Source: Candidatus Aenigmatarchaeota archaeon (lineage in GTDB: Archaea; Aenigmatarchaeota; Aenigmatarchaeia; GW2011-AR5). From it: DNA of 25,878 nucleotides. The notes under the pieces were generated by a model. It worked only from the letters and a program-made list of their open reading frames with translations, had not been told where the DNA came from and did not search any database. The translations under genes were made by a program, and so were the position numbers. The DNA lies in assembly GCA_043799385.1 (NCBI GenBank), contig JAZDNV010000011.1, positions 1 to 25,878 on the forward strand, written 5' to 3'. This document shows, in pieces, positions 3,912 to 25,878 of the stretch (positions are counted from its first letter, which is position 1; each line of letters opens with the position of its first letter).

Positions 3912-3926
3912 AGAAATCTTTATATA
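3912..3926 (+). promoter_or_regulatory. Archaeal BRE/TATA promoter of the GGDEF gene (leaderless)
   Basis: AGAAA at 3912-3916, then TTTATATA at 3919-3926, 25 nt before ATG 3951. Confidence 0.6.
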
Positions 3927-3950
3927 TATGTCACTTGTTAGTAGTTAAAT

Positions 3951-4568
3951 ATGACTAACTTTAATGATATTGACATAAGAAAGTACGACCCTTTGCTGAG
4001 CGAAAATCCTGAATTAGGCCAATATATAAAATATTTGGAAGAGGCGAACAAGCAACTGAAGGAATTGTCGTCCACCGATGAACTGACGGGATTGCCTAAC
4101 TTCAGGCATTTCCAGGAGGTTCTTGACCTTGAGTTCGAGAGGGCAAAACGTCTTGTTGAAAGAGGCGTTAATTACTCATTGTCCCTTGTTCTTTTTGACA
4201 TCGATGATTTCAAGAAGTATAATGACGATTTTGGGCATGACAAAGGAAACAAAGTACTGGAAGGCATGGGACGCATATTGAAAAAAGGCGCGAGAAAAAT
4301 AGACATTCCTTTCAGGTACGGCGGCGAGGAACTAGGAGTGATTCTGCCTTCAGCGGACCTTAAAGGAGCAAAGAAATTCGCTGATGTTCTAAGGAGTAAA
4401 GTGGAAAAGATGGAGGCGGAAAGGACTGTTACCGTTAGCGGAGGGATAGGAACATACCCGAATCATGACATAATAAGCCCGATTGGATTATTCGAAGCAG
4501 CCGACTCCTCATTGTACGTTGCGAAGAATTCGGGCAAGAACAGAATATGCACCTATCTTGACAGGTAA
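3951..4568 (+). CDS. Stand-alone GGDEF-domain dinucleotide (diguanylate) cyclase
   Basis: Coiled-coil helix LEEANKQLKELSST followed by DELTGLPN, then DIDDFKKYND-GH, I-site RKID (115-118), RYGGEEL (GGEEL at 124-128), VTVSGG and AD..LY.AK..GKN. Confidence 0.95.
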   Translation: MTNFNDIDIRKYDPLLSENPELGQYIKYLEEANKQLKELSSTDELTGLPNFRHFQEVLDLEFERAKRLVERGVNYSLSLVLFDIDDFKKYNDDFGHDKGNKVLEGMGRILKKGARKIDIPFRYGGEELGVILPSADLKGAKKFADVLRSKVEKMEAERTVTVSGGIGTYPNHDIISPIGLFEAADSSLYVAKNSGKNRICTYLDR

Positions 4569-4722: not shown

Positions 4723-5850
4723 ATGGAAAAAATATCAATAGCATTATGCGGTCCAGGTGATGTGGGGAGTAAATTACTTCAACGTACAATAGACATCCCT
4801 AGATTCGGGTATGTTGTAATTGCTGACAGTAGCGGAGCAACCGCTAAATATGCAAATGGTTCTTATCATTTTTTTGATAAAACTGAATTACAACAGATCA
4901 TTGGTCTTAAACAGAGGGGATACAAGCTTAAGGACTACAAGAATGACAGAACTGTATTTTATAACGAGGTAATCGATGCGATTGGAGAAATACCTTCGAT
5001 AGATGTATTGGTTGATACGACAGATGTTCAGAGTTATCCTATTTTAATGGTAGCAGCAGACAGGGGGCTCCACGTTGTTGGTTCCAATAAACAACCCTAT
5101 GCAGATGTTACATTTTCTCAATACAAAGAGTTGATTGCCAAAGTAGAGGAAAAAGGGTTGATACTTGATGACAGAACAACTGTTAGTGCAAACCTTGGAG
5201 CTCTGCCGAGAGTGAGGGAGTTTGTTGACACTGGTGGCATTTCCCATATTAGAGGATGCCTGAGTGGAACAATGGCTTATATCCCTTATAGGATGAATCA
5301 AGGTTCTAAATTTTCTCAGGGATTGTCAGAAGCAAGAGACAGACAATATACAGAACGGGATGAGCGTGTTGATTTAATAGGCAAAGACTTTGCCAGAAAG
5401 GTTGTTGAAATAGGCAGAGCGGTCGGAGTACCGCTTGAACTCATCTCAATAAAGGTTGAGGAATATCTGCCAAAAGAATTATTAGATATTCCTATTGAGG
5501 AATTCAGAAAAAGGGTTCCAGAACTTGACGATGTGATGGAATCGCGCGTTAAAAAGGCGCAACAAAATGGTTGTGTGCTCAGATTTATTGGTGAACTTGA
5601 TTTTGACAGGAATGTATACGAAGTTGGGTTCAGGGGATTACAAATGGATGACCCGCAAGCCACAACTAAGGGTTGCTGGAACAAGGTAACTATTTATCCT
5701 CGTGCTTGGGAAGGTGAATCAATGAGTGTTGAAGGTCCTGGTGCAGGACTTCCATATACTGCACAGGGTCTGGAAGCAGGACTACATGATATAAGACGAC
5801 TGAAAGAAAGAATAAGTTCAACCAACGAAAGTAGGCCGCTTGCTAAGTAA
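4723..5850 (+). CDS. hom: Homoserine dehydrogenase (monofunctional, ThrA/MetL/Hom6-like domain, divergent)
   Basis: Rossmann GPGDVG, VLVDTT, HVVGSNK, IRGCLSGTMAYI, EA...YTERD...DLIGKDFARK (catalytic Asp/Lys region) and GPGAG..TAQGL. No aspartokinase or ACT domain. Confidence 0.8.
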   Translation: MEKISIALCGPGDVGSKLLQRTIDIPRFGYVVIADSSGATAKYANGSYHFFDKTELQQIIGLKQRGYKLKDYKNDRTVFYNEVIDAIGEIPSIDVLVDTTDVQSYPILMVAADRGLHVVGSNKQPYADVTFSQYKELIAKVEEKGLILDDRTTVSANLGALPRVREFVDTGGISHIRGCLSGTMAYIPYRMNQGSKFSQGLSEARDRQYTERDERVDLIGKDFARKVVEIGRAVGVPLELISIKVEEYLPKELLDIPIEEFRKRVPELDDVMESRVKKAQQNGCVLRFIGELDFDRNVYEVGFRGLQMDDPQATTKGCWNKVTIYPRAWEGESMSVEGPGAGLPYTAQGLEAGLHDIRRLKERISSTNESRPLAK

Positions 5851-8745: not shown

Positions 8746-10866
8746 ATGGACGAACTGCCACTGCAGAAACATTTTCTTGAAATACTGAAAAATGAAGTAA
8801 AGGAATTCAATCCGCCACAGAAGATGGCATTAAAGAATGGATTACTTGATGGAAAGAACTTGGTTATCGCTTCGCCTACGGCTTCTGGCAAAACAATGAT
8901 TGCAGAAATCGCGATGCTGAACAATTTCTCTAACAGCAGCGGAAAAACGCTCTACCTAGTGCCATTGAAGGCATTAGCCTCTGAGAAATACCACGAGTTC
9001 AAGGAAAAATACGGCAGATACATGAGAATCGCTATGTCTGTCGGCGACCTAGACTCAGGTGACGAGTGGTTAGGCAACTATGACCTCATCATTCTCACAA
9101 ACGAAAAGGCGGACTCGCTATTGCGCCATCAAGTCAGCTGGATGAAATCAGTGAATTTGATAATCGCTGACGAGATTCATCTGTTGAACGACCCTGGCCG
9201 CGGACCTACTCTTGAGATAGTTCTCACCCGGCTAAGGCAGACGACAAAGAGCCAGATTATCGCACTGTCTGCGACGATAAGAAACGCGGACGAGATAGCA
9301 ACATGGTTGAACGCGAATCTAGTGAAGAGCGATTACCGTCCTGTAAAGCTAAACAGCGGCGTATTCTATCCGTACACACTGGCATTCGATGGCAATAGTT
9401 ATGAATTAGAGGGTCGCGGCGATTCAGAGACGCTCTTGAGCGAGGACACGATAAAGAAAGGCAAGCAGGCATTGATATTCGTATCGACGCGCCGCAGCGC
9501 CGAGGCAACAGCGGAAAAGATATCGAAAAAAATCACGTCAAGCAAAGAATTGTCCGCGCTAGCAAAAGACGTGGAAAACGCTTTATCAAGCCCGACAAAG
9601 CAGTGCAGAAGACTCGCAAAAATCGTTGCTCATGGCTGCGCTTTTCATCATGCCGGACTTGTGGCAAAGCAGCGAAAACTAATCGAGGATTCATTCAAGA
9701 GCGGAGCGATAAAAATACTTGCGGCAACGCCGACGCTCGCATTCGGCGTAAATCTGCCAGCATATCGCGTCATAATTCGCGACATGAGGCGATACGATGG
9801 CAATTACGGTTCCTCGTTCATACCGATACTCGAAGTTCAGCAGATGATGGGCCGGGCTGGTCGCCCAAAGTATGACAAGGAAGGTGAAGCGATTTTGATT
9901 GCAAAAAACGAGGATGAAGCGCAATCACTGAGAGAGCGATATATAGACGGCGAGCCTGAGCCGATTTATTCGAAATTATCGATGGACTCGGTCCTGAGAA
10001 TGCATCTATTGGCGCTAATTGCGTCAGACGCAATACAGAGTAGGGAAGACATGGAAAAGTTCTTCTCAAAGACGTTCTTCGCTTTCCAGTATCAGGATAT
10101 CGGCGAAGTCATGTATAAGCTGGATATAATTCTTGAGCAGCTGAAGAACTACAACTTCATAAGAATCGCGGAATCGATAAGCCCCACAAGAATCGGAAAG
10201 CGCGTTGCAGAACTCTATCTCGACCCCGAATCGGCGTACCATATAATAAAGAATCTTACTGCGAAGGACGACATGGAACTGACGATGATGATAAACGAAT
10301 GCATCGAAATGCATCCTTTGCTGAGGCCGAAGAGCGGCGACTGCTTAGAGGAAGAGCTGGCGAACTACTCGCTGCAGCAGCCGGACGTCTGGGACCTTGG
10401 CTACGAGGATTTCATGGCTGCTTTCAAGACGTCGCTGATGCTTCGCGACTGGATGGCAGAATACGGCGAGGATAAATTGCTCGATAACTATGGCATTGCT
10501 CCAGGCGAACTTTATAATAAGATAACCAACGCAGAGTGGATGCTCTACTCTGCGAAAGAGCTGGCGATACTGCTAAACAAGAATGAAATCGCCAAATCGC
10601 TGAAGAAAATGCAGGTCAGGGTAAAGCACGGCGTCCGCGAAGAGCTACTGCAGTTAGTGAAGTTAAGGAACATCGGCCGCGTGCGCGCGAGAATGCTCTA
10701 CCGCAAAGGCATAAAAACCGCGAGCGATATAAAGAATACGCCAGAAGCAACGATAGCAAAAATACTCGGCCCGAAGATTGCCAAGCAGCTTAAAGAAGTT
10801 TTGGAGGAATCATTAGACGAAAAGATGGGCAGGATAAAGAAACGCAGACATGGGTCCGTGGTTTAG
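8746..10866 (+). CDS. hel308: Hel308 (Ski2-like SF2) DNA helicase
   Basis: ASPTASGKT, PLKALASEK, DEIH, RGPTLE, LSATI, FHHAGL, ATPTLAFGVNLPA, QMMGRAGRP and C-terminal HhH with IGRVRARMLY. Confidence 0.96.
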   Translation: MDELPLQKHFLEILKNEVKEFNPPQKMALKNGLLDGKNLVIASPTASGKTMIAEIAMLNNFSNSSGKTLYLVPLKALASEKYHEFKEKYGRYMRIAMSVGDLDSGDEWLGNYDLIILTNEKADSLLRHQVSWMKSVNLIIADEIHLLNDPGRGPTLEIVLTRLRQTTKSQIIALSATIRNADEIATWLNANLVKSDYRPVKLNSGVFYPYTLAFDGNSYELEGRGDSETLLSEDTIKKGKQALIFVSTRRSAEATAEKISKKITSSKELSALAKDVENALSSPTKQCRRLAKIVAHGCAFHHAGLVAKQRKLIEDSFKSGAIKILAATPTLAFGVNLPAYRVIIRDMRRYDGNYGSSFIPILEVQQMMGRAGRPKYDKEGEAILIAKNEDEAQSLRERYIDGEPEPIYSKLSMDSVLRMHLLALIASDAIQSREDMEKFFSKTFFAFQYQDIGEVMYKLDIILEQLKNYNFIRIAESISPTRIGKRVAELYLDPESAYHIIKNLTAKDDMELTMMINECIEMHPLLRPKSGDCLEEELANYSLQQPDVWDLGYEDFMAAFKTSLMLRDWMAEYGEDKLLDNYGIAPGELYNKITNAEWMLYSAKELAILLNKNEIAKSLKKMQVRVKHGVREELLQLVKLRNIGRVRARMLYRKGIKTASDIKNTPEATIAKILGPKIAKQLKEVLEESLDEKMGRIKKRRHGSVV

Positions 10867-10975
10867 TTTGGTAGAATCCAGGCTTCGGGTGAGCTTTTCT
10901 TAAAAAGAAAATCTCAATCAAAAGAAGACAAAAACGGAAAAGCCTGTGACCTGAGTTCAAATCTCAGCGGACCCA
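10852..10975 (+). tRNA. tRNA-Pro(CGG) with 51-nt intron at canonical 37/38 (intron 10890-10940)
   Basis: Acceptor GGGTCCG/CGGACCC plus A, D-stem GTTT/GAAT, anticodon stem CAGGC/GCCTG, anticodon CGG at 10886-10888, T-arm CTGAG-TTCAAAT-CTCAG. The BHB central helix is TTCG/CGGA with a 3' AAA bulge. Confidence 0.93.
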
Positions 10976-15566: not shown

Positions 15567-17444
15567 TTATTCTACAATAACTGGTATGCGGTTGGAGAAG
15601 TCCTTCATCATGTCGTGTATCTCGTTTATCCGTCTGTCCAGGTAATTCACCCTTGCTGACAGCGGTATCGCGGACTGATCAGGACTATACGGTGTCTTCT
15701 GCTTTATTTCCTTCAGGCTGCGCTCGAATTCTTCCCTCGTGACCATGTTCGGCAAGCGTTTGTCCAGGGCTCTTGCAAAGTCTTCAAGGTTCTCGGCAAA
15801 GAATCTCTTTGCAGCTGAATCCAGCTTTCCTTCTAGGTTCTGCACAGTCTTCCTCTGCGCGAGTATCTCCTCTCTTATCTTCTTCATCTCGCTTAGGTCA
15901 AGAGTCTTCGAGAACTCCTTGCTCTCCATCTCTATTTTTAATCTTAATTCATCAATCTTTGAGTGCAATTCTCTGGTCTTGGCAGAAAGCTCTTTTTCAA
16001 TCTTGTCTTCTATTGTGCGGTACGGCTGCTCTGACCTCGCGCGGATATCTTGCATCGCCTTCTCGAGCGACACTCTTTCCGCGCTCTCTTCGTCAAGAGC
16101 GCTCTTGATTGAATTGACTTCCTGCACGGCATTCTCGAACAGCATCATCTTGTTGCTGAGGTCCTGCATCGCCTTCTCGAGCGACATCCTCTGCGTTGTT
16201 TCCTCTTCCAGTCTTTGCAGCAACTCTTTGCTTGGCTGGCGCTGGAAGCCGTAGCTTACACCAGTTTTTTCAACGGTGTCCATCCTGCCGGAAAGCTCTT
16301 TTACTGACTTCTCGAGCAGCGTTTCCTTTGTCGCTTCTCGTCCGAGCGTCTGCCTCATCTGCATCATTTTTGAGACATCGCCCTCTATTGACGATACTTT
16401 TTCATGCAAAGCCTCGAGATTATTTTCAATCGACGTCCTTCTCGAAATCTCCATGTCAACGCTCTTTTTCAGTGAAGAGACATCAGCCGTGTTTTTACTG
16501 AATTTATCGTATTCCTCAACCCGCTCTTCCAGAGAAAGCAATTTGGTATCCAGCGAATCCTTGACCGAATCCAGTTTCTCGAATCGCGATTTGAATTTTC
16601 CTTCCAGCGTCTGTATCCTGCTCTCCATGTCCTTTCTTATGAAATCGACCTCGCGAATATTATTCTTTACCTTGCTGTCCACTTCGTTTTTCATGTCCTC
16701 GATTCTTTCAGCGTCAGCGCTTATCTTTTCCTCAATCACCTTCATCCTCGAAATGAGCGCGTCAGCTTTTTCGACGTTGACCTCTGCATCGCCTATTTTC
16801 GATACAAGGGTGTCCCTTTCAACCATGACCCTGTCAAACTCGCCCTTCAGTGCTTTGAGTCTCTCGTACTCGCTGCTTAATTCCCTTTTCGCAGTGTTGA
16901 ACCTGTCTATATAATCCTGAATTTCTTTTTTCGAGATTTTGCCTGAACTCTGCATGGCATCCTTTATCTTGTTCATCGATTCCTCTATCGAGAGGATTTT
17001 CCTGCTCTGCATGTCAACAGTTTTCATCGAGTTCATTATATCGGGCGGTATAGAAACGCCTGATTTCATCTTCTCTTCTATACCAACCAGTCTATTCTCC
17101 AAATCAGGGCCGATGATTGGCATCGCAGGAATTGGCTTTGCTTTAACGTCGCTCTCCAATCTCGCTAGCCGCTGCTCCATATCAGTTGATATAACCGGCA
17201 CTGACGGTGCTGCTACAGCCTTTGGCGCAGGTGGAGCTTCCTTTATTTTCGTATACTCGACCTGCAGAAGAAGTAGTAAATCCTCAAGCTCATGCATTCG
17301 TTCTTCGACTTTTTCAGGCAGGCCTTCTGCTGGCTTTGACTCAAAAGTGGTAAATTTCTTCTCTATCTCAAAGAAGTTCTCCTTGCTGCGATTCTCCAAC
17401 TTTATCAGCCTTCCTTCGAGGTCCTGGAGCTTGGCGTCTACCAT
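15567..17444 (-). CDS. Long coiled-coil protein (625 aa) with internal 38-aa repeats
   Basis: E/K/L-rich heptads throughout, Pro-rich linkers near the N-terminus, no TM helix and no ATPase head. Ends in RIPVIVE. Confidence 0.85.
   Translation of the reverse strand: MVDAKLQDLEGRLIKLENRSKENFFEIEKKFTTFESKPAEGLPEKVEERMHELEDLLLLLQVEYTKIKEAPPAPKAVAAPSVPVISTDMEQRLARLESDVKAKPIPAMPIIGPDLENRLVGIEEKMKSGVSIPPDIMNSMKTVDMQSRKILSIEESMNKIKDAMQSSGKISKKEIQDYIDRFNTAKRELSSEYERLKALKGEFDRVMVERDTLVSKIGDAEVNVEKADALISRMKVIEEKISADAERIEDMKNEVDSKVKNNIREVDFIRKDMESRIQTLEGKFKSRFEKLDSVKDSLDTKLLSLEERVEEYDKFSKNTADVSSLKKSVDMEISRRTSIENNLEALHEKVSSIEGDVSKMMQMRQTLGREATKETLLEKSVKELSGRMDTVEKTGVSYGFQRQPSKELLQRLEEETTQRMSLEKAMQDLSNKMMLFENAVQEVNSIKSALDEESAERVSLEKAMQDIRARSEQPYRTIEDKIEKELSAKTRELHSKIDELRLKIEMESKEFSKTLDLSEMKKIREEILAQRKTVQNLEGKLDSAAKRFFAENLEDFARALDKRLPNMVTREEFERSLKEIKQKTPYSPDQSAIPLSARVNYLDRRINEIHDMMKDFSNRIPVIVE
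16051..16186. repeat. 22-bp exact direct repeat within the coiled-coil gene (114-nt spacing)
   Basis: TGCATCGCCTTCTCGAGCGACA at 16051-16072 and 16165-16186. It encodes SLEKAMQ twice on the minus strand. Confidence 0.9.
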
Positions 17445-17470
17445 ATTTCTATTTTGTTCGAAGTCATATA

Positions 17471-18046
17471 TTAAGTTTTGCCAGCACGTTTTGACGAAGG
17501 AGTAGTCTGTTTCTTCTTCAACTTTTTATGTTTTTTATCAGGAAACCGTCTCATCCACACTACCCATAACACGAGTATCGTTAAAATCAGTCCCCAGCTC
17601 CAGACGGTCGCGTGGACGAACTGATAATGAGCGGTTCCAAAACTTGAAACGTAGAAGAACATGAACCATATTCTGGCTATGTTCACAGCGTATACGACCG
17701 GTATCAGCGCCAGGCCGTAAAGTTTTTTGCGAAGGCCAAAATCAGTCGCAAATATCAATGCAAATAACGCGAGCATCGACTTCCAGCCAGTGCAGTCCCA
17801 ATCGATTGAAGCGGCAAATTCTCCGTCCTGCGTAGGAACTGAAATCAGGCCGTTTCTCGTTGCGTCGATGCCAGAAAAATGAATCAACGAGAAGGAAAAA
17901 TCAGTCGTCAAATTTATGAGAAACGGCGACTGAAATCCAGACAAAATTATCAGATAGAGCGGAATCGCGAAGATGTTGAATTTCAAAAGGAAGCCTAAGA
18001 TTCTTTTTAGCTTAGCATTGTCGATATTTCTTTTCATTGCAATCAT
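17471..18046 (-). CDS. Archaeosortase/exosortase family protein
   Basis: Polytopic protein with the Cys-Arg-His pattern IDWDCTG, VNIARI, FVH. The likely start is ATG 18046, which forms an ATGA overlap with the DUF460 stop. Confidence 0.85.
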   Translation of the reverse strand: MIAMKRNIDNAKLKRILGFLLKFNIFAIPLYLIILSGFQSPFLINLTTDFSFSLIHFSGIDATRNGLISVPTQDGEFAASIDWDCTGWKSMLALFALIFATDFGLRKKLYGLALIPVVYAVNIARIWFMFFYVSSFGTAHYQFVHATVWSWGLILTILVLWVVWMRRFPDKKHKKLKKKQTTPSSKRAGKT

Positions 18047-18522
18047 TTTTTTATCATCAGCAATGCGCGGTCGACGTTGCATGCCTTTCCTTTCAGTATC
18101 AGGCTTTTTACTTCATCACTGAACTGGGCGCAGCCTCTGCTTTCCATCATCCCGTCGATTTTTATCAAAAAGGACGACGCCGCTTTTTTGGCCTTTATCG
18201 CTGCCGCCAGGGCGTCGCGCTGGTGCTTGTTTCTGCACGGAAAGTTCTTTGTCAGCTGTTTCTTTTTTTCAGTCGTCATGTTCTCGCCCGGCTTGAAGAT
18301 GACTGCATTGAAGCTGGCTGCCACGCGTTTTATCATTTCCGGCGGCTTCGCAACGTCCGTGGCCACGATAACCGGCGTGCCTATCCCGGATATATACTCG
18401 CATATGCGGTTAAAGGAGAAGCCTTTTTCGCTGAATATCTTGCAGAAAGAAGAATTTTTTTTCAGGTCAATTATAGCTATGCCTGTGGTTACCCCTGGGT
18501 CTACGCCCACGATAACATTCAT
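18043..18522 (-). CDS. DUF460-domain protein (RNase H-like fold), short form
   Basis: IVGVDPGVTTGIAIIDL, GTPVIVATDV..PP..I.RVAASFNA and N.HQRDALAAA. Confidence 0.85.
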   Translation of the reverse strand: MNVIVGVDPGVTTGIAIIDLKKNSSFCKIFSEKGFSFNRICEYISGIGTPVIVATDVAKPPEMIKRVAASFNAVIFKPGENMTTEKKKQLTKNFPCRNKHQRDALAAAIKAKKAASSFLIKIDGMMESRGCAQFSDEVKSLILKGKACNVDRALLMIKK

Positions 18523-19349: not shown

Positions 19350-20564
19350 TTAAGGTAGAACGATTTCCCGTATTCTTCTTTGGGATGTTTCTATATCTTC
19401 CATGCCTGTATTCAGTATATAAACTTCTGTTGTGTCGAACAATCTTCTGAAAAATCCTTCTTGAGCCTTATTATCCTTGTTCAAAAGATAGGGGTTGTAC
19501 CAGGGTTCGTAATCAAATTGTCCCCATTTTTCCTTTGGAGCTGACCCAGGGCCAAGCATAACCTTTCCTTCTTTCAATATCTCTATTGCCTCATCCGAAG
19601 AAAGTTTTTCAATGGGTTTTGATTCCCTGTCTCTTCTGAACAAAAACACATACTTTGCCTCACATTCATGAATAAATCTATCTGGTCCGTGAATAGCTTC
19701 TGGTCTCAGAATTGCTCGGGAATTTCCAAAGCCCCAATAACATTTCTCAGCTTCTGCATCAAAAACGCACTCCCTGACGTTATCTTTTACTCTCTCTTTA
19801 CAGGCATCGTTTTGGCATTTTTCTTTATCGTCGACTACGTTTTCTAGTTCACATTTAGGAAATAAGTCTCTTAACAACGGATTATGCTCTGCCGCATCTG
19901 TCCTTATATAAAACTTTCTTTCTGATATTGTTGCCACTGATTTTTTGTCCCTCTCCTCGACAAAAAGCCAATCGTCACTGTGTATTCTAGTATCAGGCAA
20001 TTCCAATAGCTTATAGCAATGCGTGCTTTTTCCAGTGCCTGTAGGTGCTATCATAATTATGCCTTTATCGCTGATGGTGACACAGGAGCCATGAATGGAG
20101 TGGATTCCTTTTTCTTCAAGAATATCTGCTGCCAGGCCTAACGCCCAAGACTTGCACTGACCGTAATAGTCCGTATTCATGAAAACAGCTGTTTTCAATT
20201 CGCTGCAATACCATGCAAACGGCTTTTGGTCGCTCACGCCAAAAATTGCATATATGGTCCCGTGCGGTTTTTTATCCTCTTCAGCCGGAAACCAATTGGA
20301 AACCCAGAAATCATATAGATGCGGAGAAGTCGTTTGAAGCTGCACAATGACACGGTTATCCTCTGTTCCGCTATCGCTTTTTCTGACATTTTTTGGATTT
20401 ATATATGCGTTCCAGAGTTCAAGGCTGTGAAAATTCAACTCATTGATATTATACTTAGCAAACTCGATTAATCCTCTCATCTGTTCCGGGCTTGTTTTTT
20501 TATTGCTGTCTACTCTTCTGGAAGGGTCTGTATGATAATTGGCCCATCTGTCGTAGACGCTCAT
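19350..20564 (-). CDS. PEP carboxykinase/HPr kinase-like P-loop protein of unknown function
   Basis: YYGQCKS, IHGSCV, APTGTGKST, IHSDDW, NSRA and VFLFRRD follow the order of PEPCK/HPrK nucleotide-binding motifs. Confidence 0.75.
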   Translation of the reverse strand: MSVYDRWANYHTDPSRRVDSNKKTSPEQMRGLIEFAKYNINELNFHSLELWNAYINPKNVRKSDSGTEDNRVIVQLQTTSPHLYDFWVSNWFPAEEDKKPHGTIYAIFGVSDQKPFAWYCSELKTAVFMNTDYYGQCKSWALGLAADILEEKGIHSIHGSCVTISDKGIIMIAPTGTGKSTHCYKLLELPDTRIHSDDWLFVEERDKKSVATISERKFYIRTDAAEHNPLLRDLFPKCELENVVDDKEKCQNDACKERVKDNVRECVFDAEAEKCYWGFGNSRAILRPEAIHGPDRFIHECEAKYVFLFRRDRESKPIEKLSSDEAIEILKEGKVMLGPGSAPKEKWGQFDYEPWYNPYLLNKDNKAQEGFFRRLFDTTEVYILNTGMEDIETSQRRIREIVLP

Positions 20565-24196: not shown

Positions 24197-24343
24197 TTCT
24201 TCTTACAACCATTATTCTTTAACCAATATCATTCTATTTTGCAGTCTTCAGGAAGGTTGCAGTCCATATCCTGTACTTGAATTGTAATTGGACCAAGGCT
24301 TATCTTTATATTGTAGTATAAGAATTTATTATATTAGGTGCGT

Positions 24344-25878
24344 ATGAATAAGTTCATATTTTTAAGCTTGGCATTGCTTCTGCTTATTCAGATAGCAAAG
24401 GCAGACGTTATTTCATGTACGGTCAACCCGCAGGAGGTTAATTTGTCTGCTTCTATTCAGGTTACAGTCCAATTGAACAATACCCAAAATGTAACAGCTA
24501 ACGATACTGTTGAAATTAGTTTTCCAACAGCTTATTTATCTTGTACTGAATGCGTAAAACAAGTTACAATAGAACCATACTCTACCAAGAGTATCAGTTT
24601 TACTTTACAAGCTTTAAGCGCAACAACCCAGGAACAATCTATTAATGTTATTAAGCCAACTTCTTACGCTTGCCCGCCAGTTTCAAAAATAACTGCTGCT
24701 GATACAACGCCGCCGACGGTTGGTTCTGTGAGTCCGACTTCTGTGGTATCGGATAAATCCACAACTTTTACAGCGTCGGTATCTGATAATGTTGGGGTTA
24801 TAGCATGCAATTTTTCATCTAACAGCACATCATACTTAGCTACTGTGAGCAATAACATTGCTAGTGTCACCATGAGTTTGTCTGAAGGGACTCGTTCTGC
24901 GTATTTCAAATGCTGGGATGCCGCTGGTAATATCGGTACAGGAGCAGCTACTACGATAACGAGTTCAAAACCACAACTGTCAGCTAGCATAACTTTGCCT
25001 AAAAAGACCTATTACCCAGTTGAAAGTTTTGAGCCGAGGGTTATCGTTAGAGATGATGAAAAAAGTGTTGTTGATGCAACTGTAAGCGGTAACTTAATTT
25101 ATGGAAATAAATCTACGTATATCAGCTTCTTTTACTCTACTCTATGCGACTGTTATAAAGGCTCGTACTGGCTTGGTGAAGGAGCTCTACCGGGTGACTA
25201 TACTCTAACGATTACCGCCGTCCGTTCTGGCTATCAATCAGCTATAGCTACGACTACTTTTTCTTTAATCAAGCCTAGTCTGCAGATGACGATGTCGACT
25301 GACAAAAGTGAATACAACCCAGGAGATTTTATCAAAGTGACTGTGGATGTAAAGGATATTTTAGGTAACGCTATAACTGACGCTTCGGTGAGGGGTGAAA
25401 TCAGGGATGCCAGTACAGGCAGTTTGATCGTGACAGCTCATCCACGGTCAAAAGACAGCAATTATTACTACGAGTATTATGTTGGCTCAGACAGTTTAGG
25501 AAAAAGCTATACCATCTCCATGAGCGTAAGCTGGAAAGAGCAATCTGCTTCTGCTTCTAAAACAATCTCCATTACCAAAAGAGGATTAAATGCTGAAATG
25601 GTTTTGGAAAAAGATGTTCTAAAGCCTGGGGATACTTTGCAAGGAAAGATAAAGGTCTTTGATAAAAATAGTAACATAATTGCAGATGCGAAGGTTAATG
25701 TAGAGGTTAAAGGTCACGCCTATGATAAACCAGCTGAAATTGCCATGCCTACATCGTTCAGATGGTTGTCGTCTGAATATAAAGACGGTTTTTATGAGAT
25801 TGAAAAATGGGTAATAGAAAACAATATTCTGCCGGGAAATTACACCTTGAGCGCGAGGATAGAAAAGGACGGAGACGC
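24344..25878 (+). CDS. Large secreted/surface protein with Ig-like and tandem macroglobulin(MG)-like domains, 3'-truncated by the window (>=511 aa)
   Basis: Translated by hand. It is absent from the ORF track because there is no stop in the window. AGGTG at 24336-24340 precedes ATG 24344 and signal peptide MNKFIFLSLALLLLIQIAKA. An Ig-like domain DTTPPTV...SDNVGV...WDAAGN is followed by repeats LPKKTYYPVE / TDKSEYNPGD / LEKDVLKPGD. Many N-x-S/T sequons. Confidence 0.88.
   Translation, partial: MNKFIFLSLALLLLIQIAKADVISCTVNPQEVNLSASIQVTVQLNNTQNVTANDTVEISFPTAYLSCTECVKQVTIEPYSTKSISFTLQALSATTQEQSINVIKPTSYACPPVSKITAADTTPPTVGSVSPTSVVSDKSTTFTASVSDNVGVIACNFSSNSTSYLATVSNNIASVTMSLSEGTRSAYFKCWDAAGNIGTGAATTITSSKPQLSASITLPKKTYYPVESFEPRVIVRDDEKSVVDATVSGNLIYGNKSTYISFFYSTLCDCYKGSYWLGEGALPGDYTLTITAVRSGYQSAIATTTFSLIKPSLQMTMSTDKSEYNPGDFIKVTVDVKDILGNAITDASVRGEIRDASTGSLIVTAHPRSKDSNYYYEYYVGSDSLGKSYTISMSVSWKEQSASASKTISITKRGLNAEMVLEKDVLKPGDTLQGKIKVFDKNSNIIADAKVNVEVKGHAYDKPAEIAMPTSFRWLSSEYKDGFYEIEKWVIENNILPGNYTLSARIEKDGD

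Follow-up and report, generated by a model that had tools for sequence, protein, structure and literature searches.

Annotation of GGDEF genes as encoding diguanylate cyclases is routine. One such gene lies in a 25,878-nt contig (hereafter the window, meaning the whole stretch of about 26 kb that was analyzed), and the 205-aa protein that it encodes has Asn in place of the Asp that reads the guanine base. The question raised by this locus is what such a protein makes. The original prediction was that the product may not be c-di-GMP. We compared the protein with sequence relatives, solved structures and published GGDEF enzymes, and found that a second base determinant, the residue supplied across the dimer, is also changed and that the two changes occur together in related domains.

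The GGDEF gene and its protein

The gene and the features that frame its catalytic domain are as follows.

3919-3929, + strand: TATA-box-like run TTTATATATAT, centered about 27 nt 5' of the ATG, read by eye from the sequence
3951-4568, + strand: GGDEF gene encoding a 205-aa stand-alone protein, a putative stalk helix plus a GGDEF domain (open reading frame list, Pfam, TIGR00254, AlphaFold2, Foldseek)
4008-4073, + strand: N-terminal helix (residues 20-41) that continues without a break into the GGDEF domain (AlphaFold2 model)
4293-4304, + strand: RKID, the RxxD inhibitory site, residues 115-118, five residues before GGEEL (translation)
4320-4334, + strand: GGEEL active-site hairpin, residues 124-128, a GG[DE]EF variant with Leu last (translation)
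4524-4544, + strand: KNSGKNR, in the AKxxGRN phosphate-binding helix, with K192 and R198 (Asn-type alignment A2 and structure alignments)

A spacing rule is established for archaeal promoters, and the placement of the candidate TATA box TTTATATATAT would be compatible with a leaderless or near-leaderless archaeal transcript. The GC content of the gene (0.43) and its GC3 (0.48) fell inside the range of the window's genes, and the gene therefore bears no mark of recent import.

GGDEF was the sole Pfam domain of the 205-aa protein, which is without a sensor domain. Residues 41-198 aligned with positions 2-161 of the 161 in the Pfam model PF00990 (E 2e-35; 122.4 bits, cut-off 23.8), and the NCBIfam model TIGR00254 matched with an E value of 3.2e-40 (137.6 bits, cut-off 37.4). 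No named-enzyme model in the NCBIfam scan exceeded its cut-off for this protein. An AlphaFold2 model built from an input alignment of 12 rows had a mean pLDDT of 91.6 and a pTM of 0.82, and its best structural matches in Foldseek were WspR, a GCN4-WspR fusion, the Idiomarina phytochrome cyclase PadC and a coiled-coil/GGDEF fragment of DgcB.

Within the N-terminal helix, Leu22, Leu29 and Leu36 together with Tyr25, Ala32 and Leu39 have the a/d spacing of a heptad repeat as read from the sequence, which suggests that residues 20-41 form a putative dimerizing stalk. The alignment with the GCN4-WspR fusion (3i5c) begins at residue 27 of the protein. Homodimer prediction with two copies and the Asn-type alignment A2 gave scores of 0.24, 0.31 and 0.22 (mark, 0.42), a result that is neutral on dimerization.

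GGEEL was the third commonest motif form among relatives, at 22 of 375 stretches. D83, D85, K88, N91, G124, G125, E127, K192 and R198 were invariant in alignment A2, and K192 and R198 are probably the counterparts of PleD K442 and R446, as judged from alignment position and the description of those residues in PMC7288161. The full catalytic set is thus intact in the 205-aa protein.

Asn at the guanine-reading position

Two features of the nucleotide pocket lie upstream of the hairpin.

4221-4223, + strand: N91, a conserved residue equivalent to PleD N335 and GacA N339, in contact with the base on its sugar face (alignments, PMC6456294)
4233-4250, + strand: GHDKGN, residues 95-100, in which N100 (AAC, 4248-4250) replaces the guanine-reading Asp (sequence and structure alignments)

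The original prediction had read GHDKGN in place of GHxxGD and had taken Asn100 as the equivalent of PleD D344. Both claims held. The codon and the translation of the open reading frame agreed on AAC and Asn at 4248-4250, and N100 lay under the Asp of GHxxGD in 5 of 5 alignments to WspR-type solved structures; counting offsets places N100 at chain index 343 of 1w25_A, the position of PleD D344. In the same number of WspR-type structure alignments (5 of 5), N91 lay under the conserved Asn of FKxxND, and Asn occupied the N91 column in 365 of 375 related stretches.

Asn was found at the D344 position in 2 of 97 intact domains recovered by a word-indexed search and in 7 of 226 recovered by an exhaustive representative search, both sampled around the query. 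Asn at this position is uncommon, yet it is found beyond the 205-aa protein. In the two protein collections searched, no protein was more than 51% identical to the 205-aa protein. We did not find, in the full-text literature, a study of Asn at this position, of D344N, or of Asn-mediated use of ATP by a GGDEF enzyme; Hallberg 2016 (PNAS), known to us via citing papers, may list Asn variants.

Phe at the cross-dimer position

In GGDEF enzymes, Hallberg 2019 distinguished two residues that determine the base, the Asp (Ser348 in GacA) and an Arg from the partner subunit (PMC6456294). The partner-subunit Arg (Arg537 in the Idiomarina enzyme) stacks on the base through a cation-pi interaction and favors guanine, and 94% of predicted diguanylate cyclases have it (PMC6456294). 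In Hypr enzymes this Arg is replaced by Tyr, Ser, Ala or Gln (Tyr304 in GmGacA), and the Y304R change in GmGacA moves the product toward c-di-GMP (PMC6456294). The corresponding feature in the window is the following.

4077-4112, + strand: wide-turn motif DELTGLPNFRHF, residues 43-54, with F51 encoded by TTC at 4101-4103 (structure alignments)

In WspR alignments, F51 aligned with the first R of NRR in DxLTGLxNRR, and the cross-dimer Arg is therefore replaced. N100 and F51 are 49 residues apart, or 44 after subtraction of a 5-residue loop insertion that was present in all alignments. The corrected offset equals that between S348 and Y304 in GmGacA and between D581 and R537 in the Idiomarina enzyme (numbering of PMC6456294), which confirms the assignment of F51 as the cross-dimer residue. 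The TTC codon is at least two base changes away from any Arg codon. As read from these alignments, both base determinants are changed in the 205-aa protein, from charged Asp and Arg to neutral Asn100 and Phe51. A search of solved structures with a 65-residue segment spanning both sites gave Asp/Arg proteins in all of the best five alignments, with 40-odd further GGDEF chains matched. The original prediction, in which Asn might relax the choice of base, had included neither this second determinant nor the covariation described below; both lend weight to it, and it is partly supported.

Covariation of Asn with an aromatic residue

Relatives were pooled from protein searches around the query, and each GGDEF stretch was anchored on it. 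The criteria for an intact domain were a GG[DE]E[FLIMYV] motif and presence of the conserved Asn; 556 domains were kept, with the query excluded. All domain samples were drawn around the 205-aa query, and the frequencies given here are not family-wide. The 556 domains divided into 505 with Asp at column 100 (Asp-type), 48 with Asn, 2 with Ser and 1 with Glu.

Among the 48 Asn-type domains, 7 of which were near-identical cluster-mates, column 51 held Phe in 26, Tyr in 19, His in 2, Thr in 1 and Arg in none, so that 45 of 48 had aromatic Phe or Tyr. The Asp-type domains had Arg in 335, His in 104, Tyr in 14, Lys in 10, Gln in 8, Phe in 7, Ser in 7 and other residues in 20; Phe or Tyr thus accompanied Asp in 21 of 505. 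One Ser-type domain had Tyr and the other Met, which agrees with the published Hypr pattern, and the Glu-type domain had Arg.

The association was also present after thinning. In an earlier set reduced to less than 70% identity, the residue was aromatic in 17 of 17 Asn-type domains compared to 10 of 345 Asp-type domains (Fisher p 1.4e-22, uncorrected for phylogeny). New proteins from a third, profile-seeded search had an aromatic residue in 13 of 15 Asn-type and 10 of 98 Asp-type domains, although this is not an independent or unbiased sample because that search was seeded with the Asn/aromatic profile. Column 51 was the best class-discriminating column besides column 100 itself. In an unsupervised analysis of 443 thinned domains, columns 51 and 100 ranked 8 of 12,246 pairs by APC-corrected mutual information, and column 51 accounted for 63% of the entropy of column 100. 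These data show that the Asn/aromatic pairing is real.

Two other features were tabulated in the Asn-type domains. All 17 thinned Asn-type domains retained RxxD, compared to 270 of 345 Asp-type domains, and the ratio of GGEEF to GGDEF among Asn-type domains was 11:6.

Origins of the pair

Asn-type domains occurred as stand-alone proteins or behind REC, GAF, HAMP, cNMP-binding, CHASE2 or PilZ domains, and their named sources included Omnitrophota, Acidobacteriota, Thiodiazotropha and Infernicultor. For many of them, the most similar Asp-type domain was as close as the most similar domain of their own type, and the nearest to the 205-aa protein were 54% identical for the Asp type and 49% for the Asn type. 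One family of proteins of about 225 aa contained members with D/R, D/K, D/F, N/F and N/Y, written in the order column 100/column 51. This family suggests an order of change in which Arg gave way to an aromatic residue before Asp gave way to Asn.

Trees were built with FastTree on 199 and then 435 domains and with IQ-TREE on 95 domains. With the two columns removed, the 435-domain FastTree tree needed 13 D/N changes. Well-supported branches gave 4 independent pairs, of which about 3.6 went in the same direction and none in the opposite one (sign test p 0.125, underpowered). In the IQ-TREE analysis, 13 of 92 inner branches were supported, and forcing 26 Asn-type domains to be monophyletic cost 72 log-likelihood units with a p-AU of 0.049, a borderline rejection. 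This value calls for caution because the free search was suboptimal, a constrained tree being 15 log-likelihood units better. The 199-domain FastTree tree grouped the 205-aa protein weakly (0.74) with Asp-type REC-GGDEF proteins, and the family as a whole was poorly resolved. Taken together, these trees and similarities make multiple origins of the Asn type likely, without proving them.

The archaeal host and a second archaeal protein

The window encodes a threonyl-tRNA synthetase (ThrRS) with an archaea-specific editing domain, GGGP synthase, glycerol-1-phosphate dehydrogenase, aTrm56, wyosine enzymes, a Hel308-type helicase and an archaeosortase-family protein. In a search of 185,579 species genomes, the nearest relatives of the ThrRS were 55-71% identical, and those that were named belonged to Aenigmatarchaeota. 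Overall, the contig is archaeal, with Aenigmatarchaeota as its nearest relatives. The GGDEF gene lies 1.25 kb beyond the 3' end of the ThrRS gene. A scan of 23 open reading frames of the window gave no EAL, HD-GYP or PilZ domain, and an Rfam scan of the window found no c-di-GMP or cGAMP riboswitch; in a stretch of about 26 kb such negatives carry little weight.

We searched 80 loci (1.2 Mb) around the ThrRS relatives by tblastn and with a profile run over 7,729 six-frame open reading frames. A single GGDEF was found, in an Aenigmatarchaeota locus, L022. Its gene encodes 244 aa and is divergent from the ThrRS gene at a distance of 170 nt, an order unlike that of the window. The L022 protein was 37% identical to the 205-aa protein and had the motifs NFA, GHAAGN, RRSD and GGDEF, that is, the Asn plus Phe pair. 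A tree that joined the L022 and window proteins was better than the free tree (p-AU 0.65), and their placement as sisters was not rejected; common descent of the two archaeal proteins is thus possible. The closest database relatives of the L022 GGDEF, P0272 and P0273, both have Asp and Arg, and the difference between them and L022 reads as a further coupled switch at the two positions.

Comparison with known systems

The 205-aa protein is like the canonical diguanylate cyclases PleD and WspR in its fold, GG[DE]EF hairpin, metal and phosphate ligands, sugar-face Asn, RxxD and putative helical stalk, and WspR and the GCN4-WspR fusion were its best matches in both sequence and structure. It differs from them in having Asn100 for the Asp and Phe51 for the cross-dimer Arg, in being without a sensor domain and in its archaeal host. 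Among the features of canonical class I enzymes, the RxxD site is present, whereas the Asp at the D344 position, which reads guanine N1/N2, and the cross-dimer Arg are absent.

The original prediction had stated that the residue at the D344 position of Hypr GGDEF enzymes is Ser or Thr and that these enzymes make 3',3'-cGAMP. The literature bears this out, with a change of Ser to Asp restoring synthesis of c-di-GMP only (PMC6456294, PMC9140294). The Hypr cGAMP synthases (GacA, GSU1658, of Geobacter and Bd0367 of Bdellovibrio) are like the 205-aa protein in that both base determinants are altered and the I-site is kept. They differ in having Ser or Thr with GGDE[F/Y], where the 205-aa protein has Asn with GGEEL. 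Natural Ser/Thr Hypr enzymes are described as carrying GGDE[F/Y] exclusively, and the Goldilocks rule bars GGEEL with Ser (PMC6456294). Two of the three Hypr sequence features, Ser/Thr and GGDE[F/Y], are accordingly missing from the 205-aa protein, and the third, a non-Arg cross-dimer residue, is present. The protein is not to be filed as a Hypr enzyme, though it may act like one. The Asn type and the Ser type also differed in frequency, at 48 and 2 of 556 domains in the query-centered sample. By its sequence pattern, the Asn/aromatic pair parallels the Hypr pair yet is distinct from it; it forms a class that we define here and did not find in the literature. With N100 and F51 in an otherwise intact domain, the 205-aa protein belongs to this class as defined.

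The retained RxxD had also been offered as an argument that c-di-GMP is still bound. The site itself is there, as RKID; as an argument on the product it does not stand. RxxD is uninformative in this respect, since an I-site through which c-di-GMP inhibits is found in Hypr enzymes as well (PMC8835794, 10.1101/600031).

Sidorov, Romling et al. (September 2026) described GGDEF-only proteins in archaea, mainly in DPANN and related clades, some of which behaved like diguanylate cyclases in Salmonella and E. coli assays (PMC13725321). Those proteins are like ours in being short and GGDEF-only, in being flanked by unambiguously archaeal genes and in having mostly conserved canonical motifs; the 205-aa gene likewise has archaeal flanking genes and no sensor domain. 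In the text of that study, the Hypr residue checked for was Ser (0 of 20 proteins), a term search found no mention of Asn or of the cross-dimer residue, and "Aenigmatarchaeota" had 0 occurrences (PMC13725321).

A parallel exists among phosphodiesterases. HD-GYP enzymes in which Rxx(K/R) has become RxxQ/N prefer cGAMP where the others prefer c-di-GMP, and the RxxQ/N variant is reported to be more widespread than the known Hypr synthases (10.1101/600031). Both cases have an amide in place of a charged base-reading residue, but the HD-GYP enzymes have another fold and catalyze the opposite reaction, and they are a parallel only, neither a relative nor evidence on the product of the 205-aa protein.

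Proposed mechanism and alternative explanations

Our preferred reading, held tentatively and with a chance that we place slightly short of even, is that the 205-aa protein is an active cyclic-dinucleotide cyclase of the Asn/aromatic class, from a DPANN (Aenigmatarchaeota-like) archaeon, with relaxed purine selectivity, accepting both GTP and ATP. An ordinary Asp at the D344 position accepts two hydrogen bonds from guanine. Asn100, being isosteric with Asp, would keep the base in its usual place, and its amide could turn either face to pair with guanine (N1-H, O6) or with adenine (N1, N6-H). The phenyl ring of Phe51 would stack on adenine or guanine alike. With a flippable amide and phenyl stacking, the pocket would no longer be guanine-strict and would take GTP and ATP. 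Because Asn is isosteric with Asp, no Goldilocks shift would be needed, which fits the use of both GGEEF and GGDEF by the Asn type. The enzyme would work as a homodimer with one purine NTP per half-site, as GGDEF enzymes are dimers that hold one NTP per half-site and catalyze across the dimer (PMC6456294). The products would be a mixture dominated by 3',3'-cGAMP and/or c-di-GMP, with feedback through RKID. Guanine-containing products would still be expected, since the guanine-reading RxxD is kept throughout the thinned Asn-type domains. Recurrence of the pair in many bacterial GGDEF families and in L022 argues for a selected state and not an accident.

Several considerations run against relaxed selectivity. 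Asn can pair with guanine O6 and N1-H, in which case GTP may be the sole real substrate. The covariation could amount to charge compensation, from negative Asp and positive Arg to a neutral pair, with the product unaffected. The strict retention of RxxD in the Asn type also fits a guanine-containing product, and the Asn type, unlike Hypr, uses both GGEEF and GGDEF. Ras-like GTPases in which the Asp of the NKxD motif is changed to Asn come to prefer XTP, not ATP, which cuts against an easy switch to ATP. A strong alternative, which we think somewhat less likely than our preferred reading, is that the protein is an ordinary diguanylate cyclase. Asn100 would then read guanine through O6 and N1-H, the neutral pair would stand in for the Asp/Arg ion pair, perhaps with a change in the Km for GTP, and c-di-GMP would feed back on RKID. 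This alternative is consistent with the intact catalytic residues and RxxD and with the occurrence of both GGEEF and GGDEF alongside Asn, as alongside Asp. The Asp-type domains that have an aromatic residue at column 51 indicate that such a residue by itself requires no new substrate. Some archaeal GGDEF proteins do behave in this way in heterologous assays, their residue at the D344 site not being stated (PMC13725321). Against it, Asn was never found with Arg (0 of 48), Asn is stable within several families, unlike a freely interchangeable D/N, and the two altered residues are those that set the preference for G or A in Hypr enzymes (PMC6456294).

Other outcomes seem less probable. A different single specificity, be it that of a dedicated diadenylate cyclase or that of an enzyme cyclizing another purine NTP such as ITP or XTP, is improbable in our estimate. 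By chemical reasoning the Asn amide complements adenine N1/N6, and the GTPase change from Asp to Asn is a precedent for XTP. The strictly retained guanine-reading RxxD argues against any such specificity, the amide flip makes a strict preference for adenine unlikely, and ITP and XTP are both minor metabolites. GacA does accept unnatural purine NTPs (PMC6456294). We give still less credence to a catalytically dead GGDEF domain that serves as a nucleotide receptor or scaffold, although degenerate domains with such roles are known (PMC7288161) and catalysis-independent phenotypes were described by Sidorov et al. (PMC13725321). Degenerate domains normally lose GG[DE]E, the metal-binding Asp and the residues equivalent to K192 and R198, whereas these are conserved here and across the Asn-type families.

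The least credible explanation, and one that we consider very improbable, is that Asn100 arose by error in sequencing or assembly, or by mutation of an Asp-type gene in the very recent past. The original prediction had raised this concern, as GAC to AAC is one transition, and the absence of any relative above 51% identity leaves room for it. An error at codon 100 is unlikely because Phe51 covaries with Asn, an aromatic residue being present in 45 of 48 other Asn cases compared to 21 of 505 Asp cases, and because the L022 homologue has the same Asn and Phe pair. The open reading frame is also unbroken, and in composition it resembles the rest of the window.

Implications

The paired change is present in 2-3% of the domains nearest the 205-aa protein and across many architectures. 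If the product is altered, many annotated diguanylate cyclases would be mislabeled. A broader proposal, which is possible but which we would not yet favor, is that GGDEF domains with the Asn/aromatic pair constitute, alongside Hypr, a second natural class of specificity, one that would have arisen repeatedly in two steps in many bacterial phyla and in at least two DPANN archaea, with a product that is not pure c-di-GMP but cGAMP or mixed purine dinucleotides. If this is true, GGDEF-based cGAMP-type signaling would be much commoner than the published Hypr figure of 0.17% implies, and the class could supply the synthases that seem to be missing for the cGAMP-selective HD-GYP phosphodiesterases (10.1101/600031).

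Reports of archaeal GGDEF proteins date only from 2026 (PMC13725321), and c-di-GMP has not been detected in archaeal cells (PMC10249747). If the proposal is true, archaea would have a GGDEF-made second messenger other than c-di-GMP. The product of the 205-aa enzyme bears on whether archaeal GGDEF signaling is c-di-GMP signaling.

Gene arrangement around ThrRS
The stand-alone GGDEF gene of the window lies close to the gene for threonyl-tRNA synthetase (ThrRS), and the same is true of the Asn/Phe GGDEF homologue at L022, a locus from a second Aenigmatarchaeota genome; however, the arrangements differ. At L022, the two genes are divergent and separated by 170 nt:
L022 9106-9840, minus strand, Asn/Phe GGDEF gene
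L022 10010-11890, plus strand, ThrRS gene
In the window, by contrast, the GGDEF gene is located 1.25 kb past the 3' end of ThrRS. L022 has aTrm56 and a wyosine radical-SAM gene close by as well; in the window, these two lie at a distance of 16-18 kb. The window ThrRS ORF is convergent with a homoserine-dehydrogenase-like ORF, and their 3' ends overlap by 33 nt (window 5818-5850).

Other features of the window
The homoserine-dehydrogenase-like ORF is one of three with GC3 values of 0.31-0.39, far below the 0.48-0.63 of the remaining genes:
4723-5850, homoserine-dehydrogenase-like, adjoining the GGDEF gene
19350-20564, 404 aa, weak PEP-carboxykinase/HprK-like match
24338-25876, open-ended, weak MG2 match
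This low GC3 may indicate a foreign origin.

Two further features were identified:
10852-10975, plus strand, tRNA (Rfam match, 49 bits, model 1-71 in full)
15567-18082, minus strand, archaeosortase/exosortase-family protein and adjoining 625-aa protein
The tRNA was not called by ARAGORN, and it shares the final 15 nt of a Hel308-like ORF (8746-10866). Its length in the Rfam match, 124 nt, suggests an intron-bearing archaeal tRNA. The archaeosortase/exosortase-family protein is small (203 aa), and its top NCBIfam matches, of the XrtH and ArtE types, were all under cut-off. Pfam gave no family for the 625-aa protein beside it, which had only weak Rad50/SMC-like coiled-coil matches.

Covarying positions and a bacterial GGDEF family
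In the GGDEF alignment, D86-K196 and F54-G129 (query columns 86/196 and 54/129) were the top covarying column pairs, ahead of the 51-100 pair. The states D/R, D/K, D/F, N/F, and N/Y (residue at the PleD D344 position/residue at the cross-dimer Arg position) all occur within one stand-alone bacterial GGDEF family of approximately 225 aa with 55-66% identity, in which the proteins P0406, P0293, and P0414 were compared with P0290, P0302, P0400, and P0403. Its members form a naturally occurring series in which the order of the two substitutions, and their effect, can be tested.
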